NCBI GenBank assembly: GCA_963664405.1
Contig: OY761158.1
Span: 2,880,001 to 2,944,000 of the forward strand
Direction: 5' to 3'
Origin: Thermoanaerobaculia bacterium
GTDB taxonomy: Bacteria > Acidobacteriota > Thermoanaerobaculia > Multivoradales > Multivoraceae
DNA length: 64,000 nucleotides
Both the position numbers and the translations under genes were made by a program. Below the pieces are notes generated by a model that did not search any database, was not told where the DNA came from, and saw only the letters and a list, made by a program, of their open reading frames with translations. Position 1 is the first letter of the stretch; the number at the start of each line of letters is the position of its first letter. This document shows, piece after piece, positions 35,543-52,792 of the stretch.

Positions 35543-35761
35543 GGCCGCGACCGACGAAGGTCGGCGAAACTCCAGACTCTATCGTGTTCCTTCACTCAAA
35601 TCCTCGCTCAGGCATCACGGTCGTGCTTGCCATCTGGCGCCACGCAGCAGTGGTCGCCGGCTAGCAGTGAGAGCTACTTGTCGCCAATCACTCGGCGTTG
35701 TCGGCGGCTGCCGGCTCGTTGTTATAACATCCGTGATAACATAGAGATGGAGGTTTTACGC

Positions 35762-35989
35762 ATGCTCGAGCTCAAAGTACGCAAGGTCGGAAACTCTCTA
35801 GGGATGGTGTTGCCGCGAGAAGCTGCGAGTCGCTTGCGCGTCACCGCTGGAGACAGTGTATTTCTCTGCGAGACTCCCGAGGGGGGCTATGTCATCACCT
35901 CCTACGATCCCGACTTCCAAACAAAGATGGAGAAAGCCGAGGGGATCATGGACCGCTACCGCAACACCCTGCGTGCCCTCTCCAAGTGA
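35762..35989 (+). CDS. AbrB/MazE-type antitoxin
   Basis: LKVRKVGNSLGMVLP...YRNTLRALSK; RBS ggagg. Confidence 0.88.
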   Translation: MLELKVRKVGNSLGMVLPREAASRLRVTAGDSVFLCETPEGGYVITSYDPDFQTKMEKAEGIMDRYRNTLRALSK

Positions 35990-36384
35990 GTGATCCGATT
36001 TGGCTGGAAGAGCGCGAGATTCGGGCGATCCACGACTTCCAGTTGTCGGAGCACGGTGGCGCTTCAGGGATTCGCGACATCGGTCTGTTGCAATCCGCCC
36101 TCGCTCGACCGAAGCAGCTACACGCATACGAGGCGCCCGACATCCCGGCCCGGGCCGCGGCGACCACTGCTGGGATCGTGCGCAACCACCCGTTCGTCGA
36201 TGGCAACAAACGCACCGGTTTCGTTGCCGGCGTCCTTTTCCTGGAACTGAACGGCCTCCGTTTCACCGCTGAGGAGGCCGAAGCGACTCGAGCGGTATTG
36301 GATCTGGCTTCGGGCAGCTGGGACGAGGGCCACTATGCCGCGTGGTTGCGGATGAAAACGGAGAAGGCAGCCGGCACCGGTTAG
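35986..36384 (+). CDS. doc: Doc (Fic-family) toxin
   Basis: GIRDIGLLQSALARP and HPFVDGNKRT. Confidence 0.92.
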   Translation: MSDPIWLEEREIRAIHDFQLSEHGGASGIRDIGLLQSALARPKQLHAYEAPDIPARAAATTAGIVRNHPFVDGNKRTGFVAGVLFLELNGLRFTAEEAEATRAVLDLASGSWDEGHYAAWLRMKTEKAAGTG

Positions 36385-36469
36385 TCCCTGTTGATGGCTG
36401 CGAGAAAGCGCATCCCGTTGGCTGCGAGCGCAGTTTCCGGGATGGAGTGAGCTGAGGGCTTCGCGACCG

Positions 36470-36690
36470 CGGGAAAGCTAGGCCTTCTTCAGGAAGGGCG
36501 GCATCATCCCGCCGGAACGGCGGTCCGGGTGCGTGGTCCCGGCGGCGTGTTTGCGGTCGGAAGAGATGCGTGAGTCGGTGTAGGGCTTTGCAGTGCGGGC
36601 TCTGCTCTGATAGAGCAGGCCGACCAGAGACGGCGAGAGCCCGGGAAAGCGAAGTAGAAAACGCCCCGGGCTCTGCCCCAAACCGCAGCA
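36470..36690 (+). ncRNA. Candidate structured non-coding motif in the IS21 leader
   Basis: Hairpins ccttc/gaagg, ccgccg-gaa-cggcgg, ctgctct-gat-agagcag and agagcccggg/cccgggctct; motif blocks shared with the MITE at 50262-52110. Confidence 0.5.
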
Positions 36691-36747
36691 TTAGCTGCGC
36701 TTGCAGTATGGCAGAGAGTCGGGGTCGTCGTCGAATGGGAGGCGACG

Positions 36748-37143
36748 ATGCGACCGGACTACCGACTCTTCGACTGTGCTCGATGCCGTCGGCGTATCTC
36801 GCTGTGCTCGCACTGTGACCGTGGCCAGCGTTACTGCCGGGCTTGTGCTCTGGTGGCTCGTCGGGAATCGACTCGGGCGGCCGGCCATCGGTACCAGCGA
36901 AGCCTCCGAGGTCGGCATTGTCATGCCGCCCGTCAGGCCCGCTACCGTCGGCGCCAGCGCGAGCGGGCAGAGAAAGTGACGCATCAGGGTACCCCAGGCG
37001 GTACTTCGGGGAGGACACTGTGTCGGATCGAGACTCCGAGGCGCGAAGTGCGCTACGACCCGAGGAATCCGCGATGCATGCAGTGTGGAGAGGCCTGCCG
37101 AGAGTTTGTGCGAACGAGCTTTCGTCGTTGCCGACGGAGATAG
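36748..37143 (+). CDS. Small basic Cys-rich (putative Zn-finger) accessory protein of the IS21 element
   Basis: CARC, CSHCDRGQRYCRAC, Arg-rich helix, CMQC; RBS ggagg. Confidence 0.75.
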   Translation: MRPDYRLFDCARCRRRISLCSHCDRGQRYCRACALVARRESTRAAGHRYQRSLRGRHCHAARQARYRRRQRERAEKVTHQGTPGGTSGRTLCRIETPRREVRYDPRNPRCMQCGEACREFVRTSFRRCRRR

Positions 37144-37147
37144 GGGC

Positions 37148-38656
37148 GTGATCGACGCACAGCTGCGCGGGGAGATCCGTCGTCTGTTCCTGGTCGAGAA
37201 GTGGAAAGTCGGCACGATCGCTCGACAGCTACAGCTGCACCCCTCAACCGTGCGCCGGGCGCTGGAGAAGTCCGGCGTGCTACCCCAGCAGCGACGAGGG
37301 AGGATGATCGATCCTTACCTGCCGTTCATCGAGCAGGTGCTCGGGACCTACCCACGACTGCCGGCGAGCCGTCTCTACACCATGGTGGTGGAGCGCGGCT
37401 ATCCAGGAGGCCCGGATCAGTTTCGCCACCTGGTGGCCTCGATGCGACCGAAGCCCCAGCGCGAGGCGTTTCTCTCGCTGCGCATGCTGCCAGGAGAGCA
37501 GGCGCAGGTCGACTGGGGCCACTTCGGTCGGCTCCGCGTCGGCCGGGCACATCGTCGGCTCTATGCCTTCGTCTTCGTGCTGTCGTTCTCGCGCACGGTC
37601 TTCGTGCACTTCACCCTCGACACTCGTCTCGAAACCTTCTTGCACGCTCACCAGCTGGCCTTCCACTACGTCGACGGCGTCGTCAGGACCGTTCTGTACG
37701 ACAACCTGCGAACCGCGGTGATCGAGCGGCAGGGAACCGCGGTGCGCTTCCATCCCGTGCTGCTCGATTTCGCCAGCCACTACGGCTTCCTTCCCACCGT
37801 CGCCGCGGTGGCTCGGGGAAATGAGAAAGGCCGCGTCGAGCGCGCAATCCGCTTCCTGCGAAGCTCGTTCTTCGGCGCCCGAACGGTGAGCGATTTGGAT
37901 CGTCTGAATCGGCAGGTCCTGGAATGGTGCCAGAGGTCGCAGCGCAGACCCTGGCCGCAGGACCGACAGCGAACCGTGAAAAGCGCCCTGGCCCAGGAAC
38001 GACCTCGACTGCTTGAGCTTCCCGGAGACGACTTCGAAACCGACCTGCGACTGGAGATCAAGGTCAGAAAGACGCCGATCGTGCGCTTCGACCTCAACGA
38101 CTACTCGGTGCCGCACAGTCATGTGCAGAGGACCGTCACGCTCCTCGCCAGCGAGCATCGGGTGCGGATCCTCGATGGCCAGGAGCTCCTCGCCGAGCAC
38201 CCTCGCTCGTACTCCCGGGGCGAGCAGATCCTCGATCCTCAACACCTCGAGGAGCTCCTCGCTCACAAACGCAGGGCCCGACGACACCGGGGCTTCCATC
38301 GGCTGTTTTCCGCTGTGCCTCGATGCGAAGAGCTGATGCAGCAGCTCGCCGAGCGAGGCGAGAACCTCGGAACGCAGACCGCCGGCCTGCTCCGACTCCT
38401 GCGCCAGTACGGCCCCCAGCGACTCGACAAAGCCGTGCGCGAAGCGCTCCTGAACCACGCACCGCGATTCCAGTCCGTCCGGCTCCTACTCGAACGGCAC
38501 CAGCGCGGCCTCGGTCAGCCCCCGGCTTTACCGGTGCCGCTCAGCCAGGAGCTCCAACAGCGAGATCTCTCCGTGAGACCGCACAACCTCGAGGACTACG
38601 ACCAACTTGGAGGCAACGACGATGGCCCGACCCAGGAAGAGTCCAACGATCCCTGA
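37148..38656 (+). CDS. istA: IS21 transposase IstA
   Basis: HTH, PGEQAQVDWG, LYDN, KGRVER, VRFDLNDYSVP. Confidence 0.95.
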   Translation: MIDAQLRGEIRRLFLVEKWKVGTIARQLQLHPSTVRRALEKSGVLPQQRRGRMIDPYLPFIEQVLGTYPRLPASRLYTMVVERGYPGGPDQFRHLVASMRPKPQREAFLSLRMLPGEQAQVDWGHFGRLRVGRAHRRLYAFVFVLSFSRTVFVHFTLDTRLETFLHAHQLAFHYVDGVVRTVLYDNLRTAVIERQGTAVRFHPVLLDFASHYGFLPTVAAVARGNEKGRVERAIRFLRSSFFGARTVSDLDRLNRQVLEWCQRSQRRPWPQDRQRTVKSALAQERPRLLELPGDDFETDLRLEIKVRKTPIVRFDLNDYSVPHSHVQRTVTLLASEHRVRILDGQELLAEHPRSYSRGEQILDPQHLEELLAHKRRARRHRGFHRLFSAVPRCEELMQQLAERGENLGTQTAGLLRLLRQYGPQRLDKAVREALLNHAPRFQSVRLLLERHQRGLGQPPALPVPLSQELQQRDLSVRPHNLEDYDQLGGNDDGPTQEESNDP

Positions 38657-39416
38657 CGAACCACTACGAGAGCTCGCCCGATCCCTCGGCTTCTACGCCC
38701 TCGTCGACGACTGGGGCACCTACCGAGAACAGCCCTGGCTCGAACAGCTGCTGCGCAAAGAAGAGGCCGAGCGCAAACGGCGCAGCCTCGAACGGCGCAT
38801 CCGCACCAGCCGCGTCGGGCTCTTCAAGAGCATCGCCGACTTCGACTTCTCCTGGCCCCAGCGCATCGACCGCGAGCAGATCCAGGATCTGCTCACCCTC
38901 CAATTCCTCGACGACATCACCAACGTCATCCTCCTCGGACCCAACGGTGTCGGCAAGACCATGATTGCCAAGAACCTCCTCTACCAGGCGCTGCAACGAG
39001 GGGCCACCGCCAGCTTCGTCACCGCCTCCGACATGCTCAACGATCTCGCCGTCCAGGAAACCCCCTCGGCGCTCCAGAGAAGGCTCTCCAAATACACCCG
39101 ACCCTCGCTTTTGGCAATCGATGAGCTCGGCTATCTCTCCTACGACCACCGCCACGCGGATCTCCTCTTCGAGGTCGTCTCCAGGAGATACGGCAACAAG
39201 CCCATTCTTCTCACCACCAACAAGCCCTTCGCCGAATGGGCCGAGGTCTTTCCCAACGCCTCCTGCGTCGTCACTCTCGTCGATCGACTCACCCACCACG
39301 CCGAGATCGTCAAGATCGAGGCTAACTCCTATCGCCGCAAGGAGGCCAAGGAGGCTGCTGAAAAAAAGGCCAAGGACCGCGCCAAAAGGCGGAGCGCAGC
39401 ACGACGACGCTCATGA
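38622..39416 (+). CDS. istB: IS21 AAA+ helper ATPase IstB
   Basis: DFDFSW, GPNGVGKT, LLAIDELGY, TTN, VDRLTHH, SYR. Confidence 0.95.
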   Translation: MARPRKSPTIPDEPLRELARSLGFYALVDDWGTYREQPWLEQLLRKEEAERKRRSLERRIRTSRVGLFKSIADFDFSWPQRIDREQIQDLLTLQFLDDITNVILLGPNGVGKTMIAKNLLYQALQRGATASFVTASDMLNDLAVQETPSALQRRLSKYTRPSLLAIDELGYLSYDHRHADLLFEVVSRRYGNKPILLTTNKPFAEWAEVFPNASCVVTLVDRLTHHAEIVKIEANSYRRKEAKEAAEKKAKDRAKRRSAARRRS

Positions 39417-39769
39417 CCCGAAGCCACTATCGGCGCCAGCTCCTCCGCCTCTATCGACTCCTTCCCGACACCCCGCACCGCTTCCACCACGGCGACCGCG
39501 TCATCGTCGACCAGCTCTTCGACCAAGACCTGCCTCTCACCGTCCTCCAGGCCGCCCTCCTCCTCGGCTCCGCCCGACGCGCATGCCGAGATCCGCGCCT
39601 ACCAAAGCTCCAGCCCATCCGATCCCTCGCCTACTTTCTCCCCATCCTCCGAGAACTCCCCACGACGCCACCCCCCGAGGGGTACCTCGACTATCTGCGC
39701 CACACCCTGAGTCACGCCTCGCGGGGACAAAAAACCGACTCGCAGCCAACTAAGTGCGCTTTCTCGTAG
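39413..39769 (+). CDS. Fourth ORF of the IS21 element, unknown function
   Basis: ATGA overlap with the istB stop; LYRLLPDTP...IRSLAYFLP; ends inside the right IR. Confidence 0.7.
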   Translation: MTRSHYRRQLLRLYRLLPDTPHRFHHGDRVIVDQLFDQDLPLTVLQAALLLGSARRACRDPRLPKLQPIRSLAYFLPILRELPTTPPPEGYLDYLRHTLSHASRGQKTDSQPTKCAFS

Positions 39770-39989
39770 CCGGTAACAGTCCCCAAGAGAAAGCCAAGGC
39801 TCTGGCCAGGGCCCTCGAGTGCCACCCGGAGTCATGGGGTTCGTCTCGGCGAGGCCACCGCGCAAGTGCTGGGCCTGGCAGCGCTCATCGAGGCCAGGAC
39901 CGCTGCGGGAAGAGAGAAGGATCTGGCGGCTCTTCCGGTGTTGCGTCGAACCCTCGAGCTCATAGGTGAAAGAAGAGTCAAGGACGTCG

Positions 39990-40340
39990 CTACAGAGTGT
40001 TCTTGTAGATCTTGCCGTCCTTCATGATCACCCGCATGGTCTCGATGCCGTCTCGTGGTGGCGCATCAGACCACTTTTCGTTACCGCCAATGGCACTAAT
40101 GTCTTCGAGCGGATTGCCATCCACCAGCAGAATGTCCGCATAGGCGCCCGCCTCTATGACACCGAGCTTGCCCTCATAGTAGGGGTTCAGCACATCACCG
40201 GACAGAGCGACGATCTCTCCGTTCACTGACGTCATGGATTTGAGCGCGAAGAAATTGCCAAGGAATTTCGCGGACAAGAAGATCTCGTGATCCGTCTGTT
40301 TCTTGCAGGAGGCGATACCCTCCACACAGTCCGAGCGGAA
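39990..40340 (-). pseudogene. C-terminal fragment of a metal-dependent amidohydrolase
   Basis: LGVIEAGAYADILLVDGNPLEDI...VIMKDGKIYKNTL; N-terminus absent. Confidence 0.75.
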
Positions 40341-40577
40341 TCCGAACTTCGGTTTCGTAGCATTGACATGCTTGATGAAGTCCACAAAGGCAGCCTGCGC
40401 GGTCGCCGCCTTTCGTGCCGATGCGGGGCTCGAGCTGATAGCTTCAATCTTGCCCAGCTCCGGCGAAAACGCGTGCATGTTCCTTCCGGCGCTGGACCGG
40501 CGTGCCTCCCAGCGCCTTCCGGGCTAGAGGCCACTCGACCTGATCACCACCGCCGCGTGCCGCCTGAGACTCGACGC

Positions 40578-40976
40578 CTACGACAGAGTGGGTACGAGCT
40601 CGGCGTCGATGATGCGTCGATCGTGGGTGAGCAGCGTCGCCCCGTGAACCTTGGCCGTTGCCACCAGAATCCCATCCGCCGGATCACGATGGAAAGTGTC
40701 TGGTAGAGCGGCCACTTCCGAGGCGACCGCCGGCGTGATCGAGAGCAGACGCACCAAGGGCGCGGCTGTCGCCTTCTCGAGCCATTCGCGGATCGGCAAG
40801 GCCAGCCGGATCCTGCCCAGACTGGCCAGGGTCGCAACCTCCCAGAGGGTGATGTCGGATACCAACAGGGGCTCGTCCTCGCGCTCTCCTTCGACCACCC
40901 TCCGCTGCGCATCGGAGAGCCGCGAGCCATCGCTGAACCACCACAGCAGCACGTGGGTGTCGAGTACGTAGCTCAC
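40578..40976 (-). CDS. vapC: VapC/PIN toxin
   Basis: VLDTHVLLWW, SDITLWEV, HRDPADGILVATA, LLTHD. Confidence 0.9.
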   Translation of the reverse strand: MSYVLDTHVLLWWFSDGSRLSDAQRRVVEGEREDEPLLVSDITLWEVATLASLGRIRLALPIREWLEKATAAPLVRLLSITPAVASEVAALPDTFHRDPADGILVATAKVHGATLLTHDRRIIDAELVPTLS

Positions 40977-41221
40977 GATTCGTGTGACTCGGCCAACGAC
41001 TCCCAAGCCGACTCCGGCAGAACCGGCTCCACGATGTCGCCAAGCACCTCGACCGACCCGGCGAGGGTGTCCTGGGGGTGCTCCGCCTCCGATACCGCAG
41101 GTACGACTCGTGCCACCGGTTTGCCGCGTTTGAGGACGACCAGACTCTCCCCGGTCTCAGCCACTTGGTCGAGAAGCGCCAGACAGCGGGCTTTGAATTC
41201 CGAGGCGTTGATGGTCACCAT
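40973..41221 (-). CDS. Phd/YefM antitoxin
   Basis: INASEFKARCLALLD...KRGKPVARVVP; GTGA overlap with the toxin. Confidence 0.9.
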   Translation of the reverse strand: MVTINASEFKARCLALLDQVAETGESLVVLKRGKPVARVVPAVSEAEHPQDTLAGSVEVLGDIVEPVLPESAWESLAESHES

Positions 41222-41309
41222 TTGACTAGTCTATGTGACCAGTCATAAGGGGTGTGTGAAAATAGTCAATTAATTGACAATTTGCACATCCCGAAACTTG
41301 TGTGAGTGC

Positions 41310-42119
41310 TCAGACGTTACGGTGAAGTACCGCCGGCGGCCCAATGCCGCCCTCTCGAAAGGCGATCAGCGCGCGCTCGGTAATGTCTCCGCCGAAAGCC
41401 TTCTCGAGCCGCGCGTCCTGAACGTAGGCCTTGGCCCGCAGGCGGATGGCGAAGTAGCTGTCTTCGATCTCTTCGCTGATGACCACCGCCCAGGGGCGAT
41501 TCAGGTTGACGAAGCGACTGGTCGTGGTCACCTCGCTGAGTAGGCGGCGGGCTTCGGCGATGTCCTGGTCGACGCCGATGAAAAGGTCGACCTGAATCAT
41601 CATGTCGATCGCGCCGGCATTGGCGGAGGCCACCGATTCGGTGAGGAACTTGCCGTTGGGAATGGTGATCTGGGTGTCGTCGAGAGTCATCATGCGAACC
41701 GAGCGCAAACCCAGATGGGTAATCTCGCCGTAGTAGCCCTCGAAGCTCACTCGGTCTCCCACCTGGAAGGGGCGATCGAAGAGGATCATCACTCCGGCCA
41801 ATAGAGATGCGGCAAGATCCTTGGAGGCGAAACCGATGGCGACGGCCATGGTGCCGCCGACGGCGAAGAGCACCTGCTCGTTGATCTCGAAGAGAGTAAG
41901 AATCGCGGTCGCGATGCCGCCAACGAGAATCCCGAAACGTAAGAAGGAGGCGGTCTGCTGGATCAGCAGCCGACGATCGGGAAAGCGTTCGCCAAGGCTC
42001 AGCGCCCGCCTCGCCAGCCAGCGTGTCACCAGCATGGTGACGACAACGATCAACACCGAGTACGGGGCGCCCTCGGGCTTGATGAACTGAAGCAGCTGCG
42101 TTGTTTCTTCCGGCATCAC
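41310..42119 (-). CDS. Small MscS mechanosensitive channel
   Basis: Three TMs, AIGFASKD, RPFQVGDRV, G.RS, IPN. Confidence 0.9.
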   Translation of the reverse strand: MMPEETTQLLQFIKPEGAPYSVLIVVVTMLVTRWLARRALSLGERFPDRRLLIQQTASFLRFGILVGGIATAILTLFEINEQVLFAVGGTMAVAIGFASKDLAASLLAGVMILFDRPFQVGDRVSFEGYYGEITHLGLRSVRMMTLDDTQITIPNGKFLTESVASANAGAIDMMIQVDLFIGVDQDIAEARRLLSEVTTTSRFVNLNRPWAVVISEEIEDSYFAIRLRAKAYVQDARLEKAFGGDITERALIAFREGGIGPPAVLHRNV

Positions 42120-42125
42120 AGCACC

Positions 42126-44699: not shown

Positions 44700-44804
44700 C
44701 AGAAGGAGGCGGACCAAGCAGGCTGGGAGACAGCCTTCCGTGTCGTGTCGCTGTACACTGTCTTTGTTCCGAGATGTGATTCTAACCTCGACCGAGACTA
44801 GAGA

Positions 44805-47254
44805 GTGCTTCGTCATCGACTTCGCCGCTCGCAGTGCGGTTCCGCGCCGCTTCTCGCAGTGCTCTGGCTGGCCTTGGCCGCCGGTCCGCTCTTGGCGCAA
44901 GCCCCGGCGGAAGAGTCTCCCGAGCCGGTAGCGGCGAGCGAAACAGCCGGTATCGGCCTCGAGGGGATCGCCACCGAAGCGGAAGAGACTCTCGCGGAGC
45001 TGGCGGAGTTGCAGTCCGATGCGGATACCACTGACGAAGTCGCGTCGATTCAGGAGACTCTGGACGAGTTCGATCGTGAGATCTCAGAAGATCTGGTTCG
45101 GAGCAGCGCGGTACCGCTGGCGGGCCTTTCCCGCGCCGAGCTCGCCGACCTGCGCGATCGATGGGACCAGGCTGGGGATATCCATCGCGAGACGCAAGAC
45201 GATCTCACCGATCTCGCCGCCGCGCTCACCGAGGCGAAGGAGCGTCTCGTCGAGCTCGAGGGCCTATGGAGCGAGACAGGAGCCTCGGAGGAAGTGCTGC
45301 TGGGCCCTCCCGGTCCGCGACAGAGGGTCGCCGACGTGCTCTCCGACATCGGATCTCTCGACTCCGAGATCGCCGAGCACCTGGAGCCGATCCTCATCCT
45401 GCAAGACCTGGTCAGTCAGAGGCTGCTGACCGTAAGGGGTACCTGGATCGCATCGGTACCATGCAGGTCCAGTCGTTCAGGACGCTGTTTACGCTCAGTG
45501 GCCCGCCTCTCTGGCAGGTGACCCGGACGGGGGCTCCCGCTCTGGAGCAGGTCGCCAGATCCTGGCAGCGAAGTAGCGATCGAGTCGGGGGCTGGTACAG
45601 GACCTACAGCAACCGGGTGGCCCTGCAAGGGCTCATTCTCCTGGCGCTCACTGTCTTGTTCTTCAGGACCCATCGCAGCCTGAGCGGGGGTACCGAGGCA
45701 GCCGATGAGGTCGGCACTTTCCTGTTTTCTCGTCCGGCCTCGACTGCACTCTTGATTGCTTTGATCCTCGGCATTTGGATCTACCCTGAGCGCCCGCAGG
45801 CGGTCCTCGCCGTCATCATCATTGTCGCCCTCGCTCCCCTGCTCCAATTGCTCTCCGGTTTGTTGCAGGGGCGCATGCTCACTGCCGTCCGTCTTCTCTT
45901 CGGACTCGTGCTGTTGCAGCAAATCGCCTCGCTGATCGGAAACGAGTTTCTGGTCGGTAGGTACATGTTGTTGCTGGAGTCGGTTGGAGGCCTGACGGTC
46001 GTGATCTGGTTTCGGCGCGGGTACCGTAATCTCGCCGGTGAAGCCGAGGGCGCGGGCGCCTGGCACGCGCTGTCGCGTCTGCTTCCAATCGCCGCGCTGA
46101 GCTTCGCTGTCGCTGTAGTCGCGAATCTCGTCGGCGCCGTTCGCCTTGCGGCATTCCTGAGCAACGGGGTCCTGCTCAGCCTTTGGACCGCCTCCGCCTA
46201 CTTTCTTGCGGGGACGGCAGTCGCCGCGCTGCTTCGCTTCCTCGCGCGGGGTGGCCTGGGAAGCTTCTTCAGGAGCGTGGCAAGGCGAAGACGGGCGATC
46301 GAGGACGGGGCGGGAAGGTTGGCCCATTTCGCTGCGATGGTGCTGTGGCTCCGCTCGCTGCTGGCGGCTTTCGACTTCTACGACCCCGCCGTCGGGTGGG
46401 CTGTGCAGATCTTCACGGCGCCCGTGAGCGTGGGAGAGCTCGAGATCTCGGCGAGCCGGGTCGGCTCGCTGGTCGGGATCTTTATCTTGTCCCTGGTTCT
46501 CGCCCGGGTAGTAGGTGTGGTTCTCGACGAGGAGATTTTTTCCCGCCTGCGCCTGCCGCGTGGAATCCCAGGTGCGGTCTCGATGATGAGCCGCTACTTC
46601 ATCGTCGGGCTCGGCTTCGTCGCCGGCCTGTCGGCGGCGGGTATCGACCTCAGCAACTTCGGCCTCGCTGCCGGTGCGCTCGGCGTGGGGATCGGATTTG
46701 GCCTGCAAGGCGTCATCGCGAATTTTGTCTCTGGCCTGATCCTGGCCGTCGAGCGCCCGATTCAGGCGGGCGACACGATTGAAGTAGGGCCTTTGCTGGG
46801 GAGGGTGACCGACATCGGGGTCAGGGCGAGTAAGGTGCGAACCTTCGAGGGTGCCGAGGTCATCGTCCCCAACAGCAATCTGCTCTCGAACGACTTGATC
46901 AATTGGACCCTCTCTGACGAGCGCCGGCGGCTGGAGCTACCCGTCCGGGTCGCATACGGCACCGATCCTCATCGAGTCATCCGGATCTTAGAGGGTGTAG
47001 CCGCGCAGCACCCCGAGATCCTCGACGATCCGCCACCGCGAGCTCTCTTTGACGGCTTCGGCGACAACAGCCTCGATTTTCGGCTGCACGGTTGGGTGCC
47101 CTTCGGAAAGGGCGTGGTCACGAGTAGTGAGGTCGCTCTCGGAATGCACGACGCGCTGAAGAAGGCGGGGATCGAGATCCCGGTTCCTCGTCGCGACGTA
47201 GAGCTGCGATCACCGCAAGCCGGTGAAGCGCTGGCTCCCGAGCAACGGGACTAA
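44805..47254 (+). pseudogene. Large MscK-like MscS-family channel with a frameshift at ~45438
   Basis: Signal peptide and coiled coil in one frame; TMs, GALGVGIGFGLQ, ERPIQAGD, VPNS, VAYGTD in the other; one added G in the gggg run joins them. Confidence 0.8.
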
Positions 47255-48744
47255 CCCTCCCGTTCCTCTTGGCCGACGGTGAGGCTGTAGGCGATGTAGT
47301 ACTTGAAGATGTTGCTGACGTACTGCACCGTTTCGCGTCCGATCTCTTTGGCCGCCACGATCTCGACGTTGCGGAACCAGAGATCCGGGTCGTAGCCCTC
47401 TTCCTCCGCCTTCTTGCGAAGCGAGCGAACGCGGGAAGGGCCGGCGTTGTAGCTGGCGAAGGCGAAGAGATGGCGGTTGAGGTCGTCCATCTCGCCCTCG
47501 GGAAAGTAGCGGTCCAAGATGAAACGCAGGTACTTGACACCCGCGTGGATGTTGTTCTCGAGGATCTCGATCTCTGGGATGCCCACGTTGGGGTCGGCTG
47601 CCGTGCTGCGTAGGAGCTGCATGACTCCGACGGCGCCGGCGGAACTGACCGCGCTCTGGTCGAGCCCCGACTCCTGATAGCCCTGAGCGGCGACCAACAG
47701 CCAATCGAACTCGTACTCTCCCGAGTACTGCTGAAAGAGGCCGACCATGCCCCGCAGCCGCTCCAGGTCTTCAGGAGCGCCCGCGTTCTTGGCCCACTTG
47801 GTGCTCTGGAAGTAGCGCTTGAAGAGGATATTTCCCATCAGGGTCCCCTTCTTGTTGTCATCGATGAATTCGTTGACGGCGGCGGCGAGCTGCGGGCTGT
47901 CTTTGCGAAACATCAAGCCGATCTCCCCGCCGGAGCGCAGGACCAGATCGGAGTGAACTTCGAGCCCGTCGAGCACCTCGGTCCAGAGGTCGGTGAGGTA
48001 GTCGTCGGCGACTGTAACGCCGAGAAGGCCCGAGGCCACCATCTCGAGCAGGTCCTCGGTCTCCAACTGCTCCTCGGCTTGGCGAATCACCACCGGATCG
48101 AGACCGCGCTCGCGGAGAGACTCATTGAGGCGCTGGAGACTGTCGAAGTAGCTGCTCGAGGCCCGAACCCAGACTTCCTGACCGGCGAGGTCGTCGAGAC
48201 TCGCGATGGCCGGCGCCTTGGGGCCGGTGACGATGACCTCGTCGACGCCCTTGTAGGACGGAGTCGAGAAGTCGACGAGCTCCTGACGCTCGGGAGTGAT
48301 GGTCAGGTTGGCTGAGGCGACGTCCCCGAGGCCCTCCCGCAAAGCCGGGATCAATCGATCGCGGCGAGTGGGGATGAAGACGATGTGTACCTTGAGGTAT
48401 CGGGTGCCAAGGTCTTTGTTGAGCTTCTCCTCGAACCTTGTCAGGCTTTCATAACTGATGCCCTTGGGTGTGGGGCCGTCAAAGAAGAAGTTGGTGTTGT
48501 TGTAGGTCACCAGCGCACGGATGACCCGGCGCTCGACCATGCCGTCCAGATCCCCGGTCCAAGCCTCATTCATTCCGGCCAGAGCCTCGGGGACTGCTCG
48601 CTCGCCGGCTTGCTCGCCGGCCTGAGCGCCGCCGACGGCCGCCATCGCGCTCTCTTCGCCGCCACCGCAGCCGAGCAGGGCCAGGATAAGGAAGGCTGGC
48701 CACAGACCTGCGCGTTTGAACTGACTCCCGGCGGGGCCCCTCAC
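47251..48744 (-). CDS. mltF: MltF-like lytic transglycosylase (SBP + SLT), lipoprotein
   Basis: LALLGC lipobox, WTGDLDGM, YQES catalytic Glu, GVMQL, ASYNAGP, ETVQYV. Confidence 0.88.
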   Translation of the reverse strand: MRGPAGSQFKRAGLWPAFLILALLGCGGGEESAMAAVGGAQAGEQAGERAVPEALAGMNEAWTGDLDGMVERRVIRALVTYNNTNFFFDGPTPKGISYESLTRFEEKLNKDLGTRYLKVHIVFIPTRRDRLIPALREGLGDVASANLTITPERQELVDFSTPSYKGVDEVIVTGPKAPAIASLDDLAGQEVWVRASSSYFDSLQRLNESLRERGLDPVVIRQAEEQLETEDLLEMVASGLLGVTVADDYLTDLWTEVLDGLEVHSDLVLRSGGEIGLMFRKDSPQLAAAVNEFIDDNKKGTLMGNILFKRYFQSTKWAKNAGAPEDLERLRGMVGLFQQYSGEYEFDWLLVAAQGYQESGLDQSAVSSAGAVGVMQLLRSTAADPNVGIPEIEILENNIHAGVKYLRFILDRYFPEGEMDDLNRHLFAFASYNAGPSRVRSLRKKAEEEGYDPDLWFRNVEIVAAKEIGRETVQYVSNIFKYYIAYSLTVGQEEREG

Positions 48745-48793
48745 GCAGCTCAGCTTAGCAGGTCGAAGGCTTCTGGCTTACACTCAGGGTCCG

Positions 48794-49909
48794 ATGTCCA
48801 TCAAGATCCGTGTCGGCCTGCTCTTCGGTGGCAAGTCCCCTGAGCACGAGGTCTCGCTTCAGTCGGCGAGAAACATTCTCGAGGCCATCGACCAAGAAAA
48901 GTACGAGGTCGTTCTGATCGGCATCGACCGCGCAGGGCAGTGGTTGCTGAACGAGGGTGCCGCTCTGCTCTTGCCGGAGAGCACCGGTGAGAGCTTGATG
49001 CCGGAAGCCGGCAAGGGGGGCGCGCCAGTGACGCTGATCCCCGAAGGAAGAGGTCAGTTGCTGCGCTCCTCAGGTCCGCAGCCGAGTGGGGCGCTCGACG
49101 TCGTCTTTCCCGTTCTACACGGGCCGATGGGAGAGGACGGCACGGTTCAAGGGCTGCTCAAGCTCGCCGATGTGCCCTTCGTTGGAGCCGACGTCCTCGG
49201 CTCTGCGGTAGGCATGGACAAAGACGTGATGAAGCGACTGCTGAGAGATGCGGGCGTCCCCTCCCCCCGCTTCTTGGTGGCGGATCGGCGCCGTGCCGCG
49301 GACGTCGACTTCGAAGCCGTACGTGGTGAGCTCGGCGCTCCGGTTTTCGTCAAGCCGGCGAACATGGGCTCGTCGGTGGGGGTGAGCAAGGTATCGGACG
49401 AAGCGGACTTCGAAGCGGCGCTCGACGAGGCATTCCGCTACGACCACAAGGTGCTCATTGAAGAGAACGTCGAGGGGCGGGAGCTCGAGTGCGCGGTGCT
49501 AGGCAACGATTCCCCGATCGCCTCGGTGCCGGGAGAGATCCTTCCTCAGCAGGAGTTCTACTCCTATGAAGCCAAGTACGTGGACGAAGAGGGCGCGCTT
49601 CTGGAGATTCCGGCGATGCTCGACGAAGCGTCCGTGCGCGCGGTGCAGAAGATGGCGATTCGGGCTTTCCAGGTGCTCTGTTGTGAGGGCATGGCTCGGG
49701 TCGACTTCTTTCTGCTCGAGGACGGCCGACCGTTGGTCAACGAGATCAACACTATCCCTGGCTTCACCAAGATCAGTATGTACCCGATGTTGTGGGAGGC
49801 GAGCGGGATCCCATATTCTGAGCTCATCGACCGACTGATTCAGCTGGCAATCGAGCGTCACGGGCGTTCTCGAGAGCTTCAGACCTCGTACGGGCCGGCG
49901 GTGCCCTGA
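48794..49909 (+). CDS. ddl: D-alanine--D-alanine ligase
   Basis: FGGKSPEHEVS, LHGPMGEDG, KPANMGSSVG, NEINTIPG, SMYP. Confidence 0.96.
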   Translation: MSIKIRVGLLFGGKSPEHEVSLQSARNILEAIDQEKYEVVLIGIDRAGQWLLNEGAALLLPESTGESLMPEAGKGGAPVTLIPEGRGQLLRSSGPQPSGALDVVFPVLHGPMGEDGTVQGLLKLADVPFVGADVLGSAVGMDKDVMKRLLRDAGVPSPRFLVADRRRAADVDFEAVRGELGAPVFVKPANMGSSVGVSKVSDEADFEAALDEAFRYDHKVLIEENVEGRELECAVLGNDSPIASVPGEILPQQEFYSYEAKYVDEEGALLEIPAMLDEASVRAVQKMAIRAFQVLCCEGMARVDFFLLEDGRPLVNEINTIPGFTKISMYPMLWEASGIPYSELIDRLIQLAIERHGRSRELQTSYGPAVP

Positions 49910-50610
49910 CGCGCTCCTGACGGTGTGAGAGCATAGTGCGCAATCTCGGCTGCGGATAAAGGGGTAGTTTGGTGAATGGGGTAGTGCACCTGGGGTGCCT
50001 GGGTCGGTTGTTTCGAGCGCGTCGGTGCGGCGCGTCAGGCGCGAGGCGCGATCTGTGAAGACTCCAGATCGCCGGTCCGCGGCTCGTACAGCACGTCGCA
50101 ACCAGGTGCGCTACTGGGTAGCCGGAGAGTCTCGCTCCCGCCTCGCTTTCAGCAGGGATCAGTCGTGGATGGGGGTTTTCATCCTCACTCCCGATCCTGC
50201 TTTGCCCGGCACCAGTATTGAGGTGGAGATTGGCGAGGGCGAATCAGCCAAGATCGCCGAGTGAGAGTGAGCACGATAATCGATGGCGGTCCGATCACGA
50301 TAAGTGATGGTCGCGTAGCCTTTTGAAGGACTTAGCCGAAGCTGCGTTTCGCTGCCACTTGCCTCAGACGGTCTTGTTCACAGTATTTGATGGCGATTCG
50401 AGGAAACCCGATCACGTTGTCTGGTGGGAATGGGTGTTCCGTTCAAGGTATCTGAGGGCGCAACCAGGGGCCCAAGCGCGATGGAAGCTCGGCGAACCGC
50501 CTCGATCGCCCATCAGATAGCGTGCCGTTCATCCCATCGCTGCGTATCAGCCCTCGTTCAGCGTGATCAGCGAAAGAACAAGTATGGACTGCGCGTCAGG
50601 CCCCGACGGC

Positions 50611-51974
50611 GGATGTGTCCCGTTTTTTGTGGAAATGGGTTCAGGCGTAGTCCTCCGAGTCGTCTTTTGCTAAATCCTACCGTTTACGCGGCCCTCTCAA
50701 CCTCGAGCAGGAGCTGAAGCGCCCGGTAGCCGTTAATCCTTCGCAGGTGTATCTGCCCGAAGGCGACGAGCCCCCAGAGGAGCGTGACGCCGGCAGCCTC
50801 GGTGGCAAAGGAGCCCTGGGTTTTAGTGCGGCGACGAAACTCGCGGTTCAGGTTCTCCAGAGCGTTGGTCGTGCGCACCGAACTCCACAGCGATTTGGGG
50901 AGCTCGTAGAAGGTCAGTAGCTGGAACCCTGCCTCCTCAAGGCTGCGAGCCACCGCCGGGACTAGTCGCGACCACTTGGTGACGAACGCCGCGTAGGCCT
51001 TGCGGGCCTGTGCCGCGTCCTCGGCTCGTACGATCGAGTGCCAGTCACGCCGCAGCTCGTCGTGTGCGTGCACCGGGCAGTGTTTCTTCAGATTCTCCCA
51101 CTTGTGTTGGACGCAGCGCTGGACTTTGACCTCAGGCCAAGCCTTCAGCGCCGCGGCCAGCCCTTTGTGGCCATCCGTGACCAGGTAGCGCGGAGCCTGA
51201 AGACCTCGGGCCTTCAGATCCTCGATCAGCCACTTCCAGTGCTCGGCGGCCTCGCTCGCGGCTAAACGTAAGGCCACCAGCACCTTGGTGCCGTCCGGAG
51301 TCACACCCAGCACCACCAGCACCGGTACCGAGACCACTCGACGGGCCAAGCGGACCTTCAGGTGAAAGCCATCGAGAAACAGAAGCACGTAGGACTCCTC
51401 CGACAGATCGCGCTCACTCCAGCGAGCAAAAAGCTCCTTCAGCCGAGACACCACACGCGAAACTGCGCTCTTGGACAGGTGCTCCTCACCCAGCAGCGGA
51501 GCCAATGCCTTCTTGATCCGGCGGCTGTTAGCGCCAGCCAGATACGCACCCAGGATCGCGTCATCGACCTCCTGCGTACGACGAGCGTAACGCGGCACGA
51601 TCGCACTGCGAAACTCTACGCTGGCCCCATCCTCGCCGACTAGCCGTCCTCGTGGAATGTCCAGTTCCTTCGACCCACACGCCGTCGTGATCAGACGACG
51701 CTGCTTGCCGTTGCGATAGCCCGCACGCTCGCCTGAACGCTCGTAGGCGCTGCAGCCCAGCGCCTCGGACAGCTCTTCCTCGAGTGTGATCTCGATCGCC
51801 GCACGAACACGCTCGCGTAACAACGAACGAATGTCCTGACGGAAGCGTGCAGCTTCCCCTTCCTCGTTGATATTCTCCACCATGGCGTAATCCTCCGTTC
51901 GCCCTAACCGGCGATGTGTTTGACCACTAGGAGGTTACGCCATTCTCAATTTCCACAGCATTCGGGACGGATCC
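50611..51974 (-). mobile_element. IS256-family insertion sequence nested in the MITE
   Basis: Imperfect IRs ggatgtgtcccg...tgtggaaat and atttccaca...cgggacggatcc; 8-bp DR ccgacggc (50603-50610 / 51975-51982). Confidence 0.92.
50684..51883 (-). CDS. IS256-family (Mutator-like) transposase
   Basis: YRNG, LFLDG, VTDGHKGL, QRCVQH, RTTNALENLNREFRRRT. Confidence 0.95.
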   Translation of the reverse strand: MVENINEEGEAARFRQDIRSLLRERVRAAIEITLEEELSEALGCSAYERSGERAGYRNGKQRRLITTACGSKELDIPRGRLVGEDGASVEFRSAIVPRYARRTQEVDDAILGAYLAGANSRRIKKALAPLLGEEHLSKSAVSRVVSRLKELFARWSERDLSEESYVLLFLDGFHLKVRLARRVVSVPVLVVLGVTPDGTKVLVALRLAASEAAEHWKWLIEDLKARGLQAPRYLVTDGHKGLAAALKAWPEVKVQRCVQHKWENLKKHCPVHAHDELRRDWHSIVRAEDAAQARKAYAAFVTKWSRLVPAVARSLEEAGFQLLTFYELPKSLWSSVRTTNALENLNREFRRRTKTQGSFATEAAGVTLLWGLVAFGQIHLRRINGYRALQLLLEVERAA

Positions 51975-52559
51975 CCGACGGCCCGCCTTCGGCGGGGATG
52001 ATGCCGACGGACCTAGTCTTGAGCACACTACTTGAGGGACCAAACACCCTTCCCTCACCTACCGTGCTCAGAATGGCCAACATTCCCATCGATTATCGTG
52101 CTCACTCTCAGCCGAGGGGGTTGTAGCCCGTCGCGTCCGCATCGCTCCTGGTCTTGGAAGACTCGGCAGCTCCGGCATGGGGGTGCGTTATCTCACTCCG
52201 GAAGAGCCGGTCTCCAAGGCGGAAGGAGAGACGGCTTCACTCGCGGGTGCAGTATCTTCGGAGCCGGGCGTTTTCTGCCTCTCGCTGGACATCGATCCGC
52301 GTTTGCTTGGCGCCTACGGCCGTGCGCTGCAGCTCGGAGGCCTCTTCGTTCCGACCCCGGTGCCGCCGTCGGTTGGGGAAGAAGTGACGATTGAGCTCCA
52401 GCCGCGAGGTGAGGATCAGCGACCGATTCGAGCCAGGGCCACCGTCGTGCAGACGTTGCTGCCGGGCCAGGAGCTGGGGCACCTTCCGGCGGGAATGGCT
52501 GTGACCTTCCATCAGCCCGAAGAAGTGCTCAATCGCGTTCGGCCTCACCTCGAGCTCTA

Positions 52560-52715
52560 GCCCCAAGAGAACGCGCCTGCGGCCCGTTCTCCGGCCCATC
52601 CCTACCTGAGAACCACTCGCCTGCTACGCAGGCTCCTCGCCCCAGAGTACGCGCCTGCGGCCCGTTCTCTGGCCCATCCCCACCTAAGAATTACTCGCCT
52701 GCTACGCAGGCTCCT
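52560..52715. repeat. Two ~78-bp tandem units with a REP-like palindrome
   Basis: acgcgcctgcggcccgttctc.ggcccatccc.acct.agaa..actcgcctgctacgcaggctcct, twice. Confidence 0.85.
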
Positions 52716-52792
52716 AGGCTACACTTCCGGGTGTAGGACTGCTACGCGACACTGGACCGCGGACGATCTGTCCACGGAAGGAGTCTTTCCTC

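Follow-up and report, generated by a model that had tools for sequence, protein, structure and literature searches.

A previously undescribed box and hairpin inside transposon ends looks more like a DNA-level transposition signal than a leader RNA

Introduction

Accessory cis-acting sites bound by proteins other than the transposase lie inside one end of several transposons, such as the IHF site of IS10, the DnaA box of the IS50 outside end, and the HU/IHF sites and enhancer of Mu, and they aid transposition or set asymmetry. The lambda nut site (boxA plus boxB) works at the RNA level, in the sense transcript of its operon. In the IS200/IS605 and REP/RAYT systems, a single-stranded DNA hairpin with an adjoining short conserved sequence near the end is recognised as a structure; these systems use HUH (Y1) transposases and carry hairpins at both ends. 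For IS21, excerpts of PMC10122671 describe ends that consist of repeated IstA sites (L1/L2 and R1/R2), which are subterminal, oriented units inside both termini, bound by IstA and variable between lineages, together with a -10 box in the left terminal inverted repeat (TIR) and a reported target duplication of 5 bp. A further architecture is that of the single-strand initiation signals ssiA/ssiB of plasmid RSF1010 and of G4-type phage origins, in which a conserved single-stranded 5' tail enters a hairpin whose first C-G pair is important and which has a CCGAAGG-type mini-hairpin cap. Passages of PMC13037366 and PMC8567376 report that, on ssiA, the RepB' primase touches C1-C6 and the C7-G27 pair, and passages of PMC3201870 and PMC13037366 describe d(GNA) loops closed by C-G as exceptionally stable DNA mini-hairpins.

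Here we compare with these systems a box and hairpin found twice in a 64,000-nucleotide stretch of a Thermoanaerobaculia genome (the window). The motif lies inside transposon ends and is a real, previously undescribed feature of them.

Results

An IS21 element and a MITE share a box and hairpin

The first host of the motif is an IS21-family element (type A) with IstA, a downstream IstB, TG..CA ends, TIRs and a 5-bp duplication:

36384..36388 (left copy) and 39779-39783 (right copy), no strand: target-site duplication GTCCC, read directly
36389..39778, plus strand: four-ORF IS21-family element 'type A' of 3390 bp, with TG..CA termini and imperfect 41-nt TIRs (80%)
36502..36509, plus strand: type A box CATCATCC, its ATCATC starting 113 nt inside the left terminus
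36509..36523, plus strand: type A hairpin CCGCCG-GAA-CGGCGG, DNA fold centroid -7.4 kcal/mol, its first C being the last base of the box
36748..37143, plus strand: ORF1, 131 aa, Cys-/Arg-rich, without a Pfam or NCBIfam family
37085..38656, plus strand: IstA transposase, start codon uncertain (NF033546 244.8 bits, cut-off 160; rve, Mu-transpos_C_2)
38607..39416, plus strand: IstB AAA+ helper (PF01695, 211 bits)
39413..39769, plus strand: ORF4, 118 aa, no known family, its 3' end entering the right TIR

The genome holds 21 full-length copies of type A, one near-full copy and fragments; read with the boundary shifted by one base, the full-length copies are flanked by duplications of 5 bp (18/21), 6 bp (one copy) or none (two copies). 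The second host is a MITE, being small, ORF-less and multicopy, with TIRs, duplications and ends as in an autonomous type, and in the window it is interrupted by an IS256-family element:

50262..52110, minus strand: MITE, 477-479 bp without its insert, a type-C-like derivative carrying IS256, 25-nt TIRs
50611..51974, minus strand: IS256-family element, 1364 bp (PF00872, 294 bits), 8 nt beyond the MITE hairpin
51975-51982 and 50603-50610: 8-bp IS256 duplication GCCGTCGG, which starts at the last stem base
51982..51996, minus strand: MITE hairpin CCCGCC-GAA-GGCGGG, read from sequence and folded
51996..52003, minus strand: MITE box CATCATCC, its ATCATC starting 109 nt inside the MITE terminus

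Fifteen MITE copies were found, eight empty and seven with IS256 at the same site, each with its own flanking duplication (mostly 5-7 bp, shorter in two copies). The other four of the 11 IS256 copies lie elsewhere, and their 8-bp duplications are unrelated. The MITE is a derivative of a third element type, type C, found elsewhere in the genome: its ends align with those of type C over 133 nt on the left and 51 nt on the right. Type C carries the box too, and the similarity breaks off immediately past the hairpin. Type C encodes an IS481-like transposase and an AAA_22 ATPase. Its hairpin has degenerated, with one G-G mismatch, but five near-identical copies of the element are present.

The 12-mer CGGCATCATCCC occurs at 36499-36510 (plus strand) and 52006-51995 (minus strand), the sole two matches in the window at ≤1 mismatch. 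This count alone is not significant (0.47 matches expected in the window; 11/100 shuffles gave ≥2), and both copies continue directly into a hairpin whose perfect 6-bp stem is all GC and whose loop is GAA, as the initial annotation had described. In a local alignment of the IS21 leader with an IS256-free MITE copy, set against 300 shuffles, no shared segment other than box plus hairpin rose above chance (score 34; best shuffle 30; 0/300 reached 34). The sequence before the box, CTAGG included, was aligned equally well in 94/300 shuffles, and the sequence after the hairpin was equalled or bettered in 287/300; the shared blocks GCGTGGTCC/GCGCAGTCC, which had also been proposed, thus lack support, and the 'weaker later blocks' are chance. 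Two further proposals hold: the motif is conserved although the ends of type A and of the MITE are unrelated to each other, and the MITE retains it without any ORF of its own. Rfam covariance models, run over both strands of 35500-53000, returned nothing at E ≤ 1, so the motif belongs to no Rfam family. For 36-nt windows of types A, B and C, folding energies were no better than those of shuffles.

The motif points inward from the nearest terminus

Copies of the motif were found in about 20 element lineages (Acidobacteriota, Planctomycetota, Multivoradales MAGs), and metagenomes added at least 63 loci. It sits at one element end only and always points inward from the nearest terminus. In types A, B and C and in L039-L042, L049, L057, L065 and L084 it occupies the left end, on the sense strand; in L037 (two copies), L038 (three copies) and L053, which form one IS21 lineage, it occupies the right end, antisense and just past ORF4. 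L203 has the layout of L037, and its sequence beyond the third box matches that of L037. Of the 63 metagenome loci, 20 carry the class I signature, GTGACC repeats upstream of the box; in the loci we assign to this class the motif is downstream of the operon, antisense and adjoining the right terminus. The leader position given in the initial annotation is therefore not universal. Extra ATCATC boxes within -150..+172 of the 63 metagenome motifs number 74 on the box strand vs 4 on the opposite strand; some lineages carry two or three tandem box-hairpin units per end, and some arrays include boxes without hairpins.

Inward orientation at whichever end bears the motif, tandem copies in some lineages and GC-rich stems would fit an insulator or terminator that blocks transcription from the flanks, shielding the element from outside activation or antisense transcripts. 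We nevertheless consider this role highly improbable: an intrinsic-terminator scan found no site at the motif, neither strand has a T-run after the hairpin, conservation is highest in the 5' box, which a terminator does not need, and only one end is equipped.

In this genome, all 42 model matches at E ≤ 0.01 fall inside type A or MITE copies; by simple counting, 98 of the 4483 ATCATC boxes lead into a perfect hairpin, 49 of them in type A, type B or MITE copies. Many intergenic copies outside mobile elements, the mark of REP/BIME sequences, were not found in this genome. We therefore give hardly any credence to the idea that the motif has no function of its own and is a REP-like small palindromic repeat, captured or hitch-hiking. 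In genome G279 a tandem pair follows a host-like gene (702 aa) at two paralogous loci with no IS21 genes nearby, which would fit this idea, but the stretch has end-like sequence and in our reading looks like the relic of an IS end; the position and orientation relative to the terminus, conserved across phyla, and the compensatory stem changes described below also argue against it.

The box is invariant and the stem covaries

ATCATC is invariant in 14/14 aligned lineages, and ATCATC with the first C-G pair in 15/15. One stem alignment, itself fitted to the model, has 98.9% of its 87 cells paired, with double changes at 4/6 pairs and one-sided changes at none, and its covariation score was matched by 0/500 shuffles. 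Two approaches outside that alignment agree: structure-naive MAFFT/RNAalifold on 14 sequences returned the same helix, with compensatory changes in 3/4 of its pairs, and a metagenome pattern scan that left two stem pairs unconstrained found them Watson-Crick in 76/88 and 74/88 matches. The covariation that the initial annotation had put forward as a check is thus present. A GNA loop with a C-G closing pair was tallied by eye in 14/22 instances; among secondary copies, which were not pattern-selected, 10/12 have GNA/C-G loops and 12/12 have C-G closure.

Could the box be a further transposase-binding repeat (an L3-type site), its palindrome incidental or a separate operator? IS21 ends consist of such repeats, ATCATC forms same-strand arrays, and the terminal repeat of B, L039, L040 and L137 itself includes GATCATC or GATCAC (examples TGTCGGCGATCATC and GTCAATGATCATCAGG, vs box context TTCAACATCATCC). 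We find this improbable all the same, as the same box accompanies differing terminal repeats (GATGGCTGCGAG in type A, GAGCACGATAATCGATGG in type C and the MITE, GTGACCCA in class I) and transposases of different families, conservation of the box extends to the hairpin and its first C-G pair, and the terminal repeats lack such a hairpin. With the IS21 L and R repeats the motif shares a subterminal, oriented and repeated layout, but it sits at one end, is constant across lineages, also serves elements with another transposase family, and has a hairpin.

A stronger contender, though still an unlikely one, is a leader RNA, in which the box and hairpin would form the 5' part of an inward transcript started in the TIR and control mRNA stability, attenuation or translation, perhaps bound by the Arg-rich zinc-ribbon ORF1 protein in a nut boxA-boxB-like architecture. 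In most lineages the motif precedes ORF1 on the sense strand, where the -10 box in the left TIR of IS21 (excerpts of PMC10122671) means that it is probably also transcribed; the ORF1 protein is rich in Cys and Arg; changes in the stem are compensatory; and the few imperfect pairs in copies judged genuine, seen in L207, L208, L037b and a single secondary copy, read G-T on the box strand, never A-C. Like nut, it is a linear box beside a small hairpin with a variable stem and purine-rich loop near the operon start; unlike nut, it is antisense and downstream of the genes in one lineage and is retained by a MITE. That the motif is antisense and downstream of the operon in L037, L038, L053 and class I loci, and kept and amplified in an ORF-less MITE, speaks against a leader RNA, as do triloops predominantly of the DNA mini-hairpin type, boxes without hairpins in some arrays, the lack of an Rfam match at E ≤ 1, and the absence of the box from 72/80 ORF1 loci.

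The gene that tracks the motif is ORF4

A search of genome contigs returned 256 relatives of ORF1 (the type A and type B proteins are 40% identical), and the box is present in only 8/80 ORF1 loci, which undoes the proposed tie to the Cys-rich ORF. Nor is the motif specific to an IS21 subfamily, as had been suggested, given the IS481-like transposase and AAA_22 ATPase of the MITE's parent type. What survives is the link to IS21-type elements with accessory ORFs, except that the gene tracking the motif is ORF4, not ORF1. ORF4, homologous across types A, B and C, has a homologue in 5/5 genomes holding motif-bearing ORF1 elements vs 0/5 proteobacterial genomes with motif-less ORF1 elements, a co-occurrence confounded by phylogeny and partly by how the loci were found; in L065 (four copies), L084 and L057 it lies ~2.9 kb downstream of the motif. 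Among the measured motif-bearing types (A, B, C, L037, L038, L040-L042, L049, L053; L039 had no ORF called) it is 96-179 aa long, vs 222-501 aa in motif-less L044, L045, L047, L048 and L052. The long forms include weak wHTH matches in L044 and L052 and an IstB fusion in L044; HTH_36 matches among them are weak (E 0.004-0.05), with PF13730 on 4/58 long homologues.

The ORF4 model has five helices (pLDDT 83), and a fold comparison gave no significant match. As to a DnaD-like, replication-organiser identity for ORF4, a structure comparison (VIA) gave Z 5.7-5.8 to two DnaD-domain chains, amid many AAA-lid matches at Z ≤6.9, and solved structures gave no sequence match. A match to the Pfam RepB primase C-terminal helical domain was sub-threshold and not significant (3/15 members, best E 0.022). 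No HUH protein or primase is encoded among the element genes.

Discussion

The motif looks more like a DNA-level transposition signal than a leader RNA, and we tentatively favour, at somewhat less than even confidence, a cis-acting transposon-end module that would be read as DNA, probably as a single-strand hairpin. Several observations point this way: orientation is set by the nearest terminus and not by genes; the motif is kept in a gene-less MITE, which kept moving (seven copies) with a 1.36-kb IS256 inserted 8 nt beyond the hairpin; it is common to elements with unrelated transposases, ATPases and terminal repeats; boxes form same-strand arrays; the stem covaries and carries GNA triloops; and the motif is confined to elements in this genome and co-occurs with ORF4. 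The single-strand DNA structure or accessory-protein site offered in the initial annotation is compatible with these data; its RNA-associated or RNA-guided system found no support, as the copies are identical and the flanks match neither loop nor box.

Counting against the DNA-level reading are the sense-strand location of the motif between the left TIR and the first ORF in most lineages, where it is probably transcribed, the need for a single-stranded state, the degenerate hairpin of type C, the unremarkable folding energies, the confounded ORF4 co-occurrence and the presence of ORF4 also in some motif-less elements.

The motif has an ssi-type architecture, with invariant ATCATC, an invariant first C-G pair and CCGNAGG caps, which we take as a likeness of architecture only: its place is a transposon end instead of an oriV, its box has an unrelated sequence, a priming role would be hypothetical, the element has no primase gene, and the sole protein link is the non-significant ORF4/RepB_primase_C match. 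It resembles the IS10, IS50 and Mu host-factor sites as an accessory cis site inside one end, but those sites are double-stranded consensus sequences and have no covarying hairpin. As a set the boxes match none of them; compared by eye with TTATCCACA, they agree at 5-8 of 9 positions, and the DnaA-critical half falls in the variable stem. The likeness to IS200/IS605 and REP/RAYT ends lies in a hairpin with an adjoining conserved sequence, whereas the elements studied here use DDE transposases and AAA+ helpers.

Beyond the anatomy, conservation, covariation and distribution described above, what we infer for the favoured DNA-level module concerns binding, the single-stranded state and the step served. 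The module comprises one or more same-strand ATCATCC boxes 40-125 nt inside one terminus and pointing inward, the main box entering a GC hairpin with a C(GNA)G triloop. A protein may recognise the single-stranded box plus the first C-G pair of the hairpin when the non-transferred strand, which has its 5' end at the terminus, is unpaired; since a 6-bp stem is too short for cruciform extrusion, the single-stranded state would have to come from replication or transcription. The likeliest partner would be either the short ORF4 protein, a putative nucleic-acid binder whose gene accompanies that of the ATPase, or a host factor. Such a module would single out one end of the element for some transposition step other than transposase binding.

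A box running into a GC hairpin is common to two mobile elements

The module analysed here, an ATCATC box that runs into a small GC hairpin with a GAA/GNA loop, lies inside transposon ends, and two elements of the window carry it:

36389-39778: type A, an IS21-family element with TG..CA ends, 41-nt imperfect terminal inverted repeats (TIRs) and four ORFs
ORF1 of type A: Cys/Arg-rich, without family
IstA of type A: NF033546, 244.8 bits
IstB of type A: PF01695
ORF4 of type A: 118 aa, without family
50262-52110, minus strand: MITE carrying an IS256-family element, 477-479 bp without the insert
50611-51974: the IS256-family element in the MITE, with an 8-bp duplication, GCCGTCGG

We found exactly two matches to CGGCATCATCCC in the window, one in the IS21 leader and one in the MITE, where the initial annotation had placed them. 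Two matches are by themselves not unusual (11/100 shuffles also gave two); both copies lead into a GC stem of six perfect base pairs that closes a GAA loop, and when the leader was aligned with an IS256-free MITE copy, this box and hairpin formed the sole segment above chance (0/300 shuffles as good), which bears out the core of the original observation. The similarity that had been proposed around it dissolved into background: the sequence shared ahead of the box, including CTAGG, was no better than shuffles (94/300 as good), and neither were the ‘weaker later blocks’ past the hairpin (287/300 as good). The motif had no Rfam match, in line with its proposed novelty.

Copies in the source genome and the parentage of the MITE

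The source genome, a single 6.78-Mb contig assigned to Acidobacteriota, holds 21 full copies of type A, one near-full copy and fragments; a 5-bp duplication was present at 18 of the 21 full copies, and that of the window copy is GTCCC. Directly upstream of this copy lie a MazE-like ORF and a Fic/Doc-domain ORF (35498-36384), the stop codon of the latter falling 4 nt before the insertion point. Another Acidobacteriota MAG (G164; L034, L054) carries type A with a 100% identical ORF1, an identical box-hairpin and an equally scoring ORF4, together with a type-C-like element, which points to recent transfer or close kinship.

Two further four-ORF types are present. Type B (3326 bp; six full copies, one diverged, one interrupted) belongs to IS21 and shares ORF1 (40% identity) and ORF4 with type A; its box, CAGCATCATCG, is followed by a 7-bp stem, with ATCATC from nt 71. 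Type C (3560 bp; five copies, L002 at G000:C1:537661-541220, outside the window, being one) encodes an IS481-like transposase and an AAA_22 (ExeA-like) ATPase, together with a distinct Cys/HTH ORF1; its ORF4 shares 34-35% identity with the A and B versions. Its box is CCGGCATCATCC, with ATCATC from nt 113, a distance equal to that of type A, and its hairpin is degenerate.

The MITE matches the ends of type C over 133 nt on its left and 51 nt on its right, so that it derives from a type-C-like element, and type C is its likely mobiliser; the similarity at the left end stops directly past the hairpin. There are 15 MITE copies in the genome, eight empty and seven with IS256 at the same site and with the same internal 8-bp duplication, while the four remaining IS256 copies occupy unrelated sites. 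The identical site and duplication imply a single IS256 insertion, after which the composite was mobilised via the MITE ends; since the inner duplications are shared and the outer ones differ, the 1.85-kb MITE::IS256 composite was amplified as a unit. The MITE thus kept moving with 1.36 kb placed 8 nt past the hairpin, which argues that the module needs nothing at a fixed inner distance. Outside the window, an empty MITE and a composite also stand head to tail with one G between them (G000:C1:3800330-3802657), an arrangement that resembles the abutted-end junctions of IS21 tandems.

The stem covaries and the loop follows a DNA mini-hairpin rule

In a model-fitted alignment of 15 instances, a procedure biased towards structure, 98.9% of 87 cells were paired, both-sided changes occurred in four of six pairs and one-sided changes in none, the first pair was C-G in 15/15, and the observed score was reached by 0/500 shuffles. 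The expected covariation held up when structure-naive MAFFT and RNAalifold (14 lineages) returned the same helix, with compensatory changes in three of four pairs. Two stem pairs left free in the metagenome pattern were Watson-Crick in 76/88 and 74/88 of the matches listed, one of these positions being mainly A-T or G-C among them; most of the non-Watson-Crick matches look like chance matches in coding sequence. Among copies judged genuine, the imperfect pairs were G-T on the box strand (n=4, too few to test) and never A-C. Outside these elements, about 1% of ATCATC boxes in the source genome are followed by a perfect hairpin. That the module is a functionless palindrome hitch-hiking in the ends we consider highly improbable.

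By eye, 14 of 22 instances have a GNA loop closed by C-G; in secondary copies, which were selected by no pattern, this combination appears in 10/12 and the C-G closure in 12/12. GNA loops closed by C-G are the rule for very stable DNA mini-hairpins (PMC3201870, PMC13037366).

Several other structures and signals were considered and set aside. An outer helix around the box is present in the MITE and not conserved in other lineages, and MFE folds of 13 leaders gave no consistent long-range partner for the box. A small outward ORF from ATGATG on the opposite strand would, translated by eye, span 9 codons in type A, 20 in type B and 18 in the element L039, stays open across the terminus in L038 and the MITE, and loses one or both ATG in the variants TATTATCC and TATCATCC. 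A DnaA box or IHF site was rejected on by-eye comparison, the decisive part of the DnaA box falling in the variable stem.

Distribution across genomes and metagenomes

Searching the phylum with an ORF4 profile gave matches in 25 of 401 genomes, source genome included, and 20 elements were retrieved. The ORF1 profile found 256 relatives in genome contigs of many phyla, of which 80 were kept; CATCATC lay within 500 nt upstream in only eight of these 80 loci, none of the eight being proteobacterial. A first covariance model built on seven lineages recovered more instances. The second gave 42 matches at E ≤ 0.01 in the source genome, all within type A or MITE copies, and, among 150 other genomes of the phylum, genuine matches in G083, G015 and G068. 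Seven weaker single matches from the phylum scan were inspected, L142, in an unpublished genome, being left out: L137 is genuine, and L138-L141, L143 and L144 were dropped by eye as chance matches in coding-like sequence. A pattern scan of metagenomes returned at least 120 stretches, of which 80 loci with 88 matches were listed. Altogether, the motif was found in Acidobacteriota and in MAGs that bear the labels Planctomycetota, Thermoanaerobaculia (L084, in a genome flagged as unpublished) and Candidatus Multivoradales.

In one genome (G279), two paralogous loci (L164 8147-8210, L165 6177-6240) each have a tandem box-hairpin pair ~140 nt 3' of a host-like gene (702 aa), with IS21 genes absent nearby and end-like sequence adjoining; the arrangement suggests a relic IS end carried by a 2.2-kb duplication.

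The proteobacterial ORF1-type IS21 elements (L101, L125, L117) are without the CATCATCC module and have instead, ~250-320 nt upstream of ORF1, a 13-15-bp hairpin with a conserved GGAGCCCGGAGGGCGACTG in its loop. A long second hairpin (CCCCGGGCTCTGCC ... GGCAGAGAGTCGGGG; 36654-36724), preceded by GTAGAAAAC, also stands just 5' of ORF1 in type A, and in elements of many phyla ORF1 is preceded by counterparts that differ in stem sequence, have loops like TGGCGGTC or TGGCAGTT and follow an upstream TGTGTAGAAA or TGTAAGAAG. It is terminator-like in a minus-strand scan, and the 160 nt upstream of ORF1 at 54 distinct loci folded better on the minus strand (35 vs. 19, Wilcoxon p 0.0015, relatedness not controlled); this hairpin may be an antisense RNA or a terminator.

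The module occupies one end and points inward

At the left end and on the sense strand, the module was found in types A, B and C, the MITE and the loci L039-L042, L049, L057, L065 and L084, with ATCATC starting about 60-113 nt from the terminus where this is known (A, B, C, MITE, L039, L040-L042). In a second lineage of IS21 elements (L037, L038, L053) it lies at the right end on the opposite strand, directly past the ORF4 stop, as two or three tandem units; L203 shares this layout: beyond its third box it matches the corresponding part of L037, which runs antisense to the ORF4 3' end. GTGACC repeats upstream of the box, a mark of this right-end lineage, occur at 20/63 metagenome loci among the matches listed. 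No element was seen with the module at both ends; L038, whose left terminus was not located, has none in 4.9 kb upstream. Extra ATCATC boxes at the 63 metagenome loci, among the matches listed, lie on the box strand far more often than opposite (74 vs. 4), some with a hairpin of their own and some without. Upstream of IstA, L053 encodes a ParB-like protein (515-2086; ParB_N + HTH_ParB, E about 1e-5); the ORF at this position in L038 (1585-2691) had no Pfam match. The first ORF of L053 is a different Cys/Arg-rich one.

These observations bear on whether the module is read as DNA or as RNA. A leader RNA would suit the place of the module between the left TIR and ORF1 in most lineages, and the IS21 left TIR carries a −10 box (PMC10122671). 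A sigma-70 promoter scan of 36300-36800 gave no site. Contigs from three metatranscriptome runs and one DNA run included two short exact RNA contigs (one in istB, one at an IS256 end) and none over either motif. A DNA module fits better than a leader RNA on several counts: the fixed inward orientation at whichever end bears the module, its restriction to one end, the fact that the MITE keeps it at the inner border of its conserved end, its independence of transposase family and terminal repeats, and finally the arrays of boxes on one strand, the strictly Watson-Crick stems and the triloops of DNA type. We therefore favour, tentatively, a cis-acting module of the transposon end that is read as DNA, and regard a leader RNA as unlikely. 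An extra transposase-binding repeat, in elements that share the module across transposase families, appears improbable, and an insulator against transcription entering the element, to which the constant inward direction is also relevant, more improbable still. No support was found for an RNA-guided system, and the idea that variable loops match target sites failed at the flanks of the 21 type A and 15 MITE copies, which hold no box, hairpin or common motif.

ORF4 accompanies the module

ORF4 is the only protein common to types A, B and C and the right-end lineage. Genomes with motif-bearing elements that were found via ORF1, and not via ORF4, had an ORF4 homologue in 5/5 cases, vs. 0/5 for proteobacterial genomes with motif-less ORF1 elements. 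L065 (four copies), L084 and L057 have it ~2.9 kb further downstream than the motif; the other motif-bearing ORF1 loci (L071, L074, L099) are deleted, interrupted or relic copies. ORF4 measures 96-179 aa in motif-bearing types where measured. It also occurs in motif-less elements, and is long (222-501 aa) in L044, L045, L047, L048 and L052, two of which (L044 and L052) match a wHTH weakly; long homologues (224-295 aa) are common in the protein collection, PF13730 being present on 4/58. In L044 (G230, residues 1-501), IstB, the weak wHTH and the ORF4 domain share one 501-aa frame, a natural fusion suggestive of ORF4 acting together with the ATPase.

The AlphaFold model of ORF4 is a confident five-helix bundle (pLDDT 83). 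ORF4 had no Pfam/NCBIfam family, no PDB sequence match and no Foldseek match at E ≤ 0.001, fell into unnamed clusters only in the protein atlas, and had no significant neighbour in the VIA structure comparison (Z ≤ 6.9). Weak hints of DnaD-like domains (Z 5.7-5.8) and of the C-terminal helical domain of RepB primase (3/15 members, E 0.02) stayed below any threshold. The association of ORF4 with the motif is confounded by phylogeny and makes ORF4 a candidate binder of the module, a lead and not proof.

Discussion

The motif would count among the accessory sites that act in cis at the ends of mobile elements, or among the structured single-strand signals there. Since the stem sequence is free and the box and first C-G pair are fixed, the recognised form is probably a folded single strand, and the strand recognised would be the non-transferred one, whose 5' end lies at the terminus. 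Among described architectures, the ssi signal of RSF1010 comes nearest: a single-stranded 5' tail of six bases leads into a hairpin with a CCGAAGG cap, and RepB' primase contacts both the tail and the first C-G pair (PMC13037366, PMC8567376).

By analogy, the box-hairpin could be an ssi-kind priming or primosome-loading signal within one end of DDE transposons, a speculative proposal that we hold to be improbable as it stands. A fork entering at the terminus would displace the non-transferred (box) strand, on which the box and mini-hairpin, 40-125 nt inside the end, would fold and attract an activity that primes or loads helicase, supplied by the host primosome or, through the short ORF4 as adaptor, by the ATPase of the element (AAA_22 or the DnaC-like loader IstB). 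The terminus would then be copied as part of the first lagging-strand fragment, whose primer would be extended outward over it. The geometry fits such a site, as the displaced strand is the box strand and a primer just inside the end extends outward. If true, priming would explain the one-end location and constant inward direction of the motif, why the MITE must keep it, its independence of transposase family and its DNA-type C(GNA)G caps.

IS21 serves as a structural model of how a transposase works with a dedicated AAA+ helper, and to our knowledge no cis requirements of IS21 have been described past the terminal L1/L2 and R1/R2 repeats. In the literature searched, with subscription-only papers and ISfinder notes outside its range, we found no prior description of the motif or of ORF1/ORF4 in IS21 elements. 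The covariance model flags these elements and MITEs in Acidobacteriota and soil metagenomes, with about six weak single matches in coding-like sequence set aside by eye among the 150 genomes scanned. The module itself, at about 25 nt and with compensatory variants available in nature, lends itself to experiment. The finding adds to IS21 ends a second, structure-dependent cis element, which is common to IS21-type and IS481-like/AAA_22 elements, is kept by a MITE and travels with an uncharacterised accessory protein. A structured cis element and accessory protein shared in this way argue for a transposition step beyond the transposase-plus-ATPase picture, for which end asymmetry, element replication, immunity or regulation are candidates.
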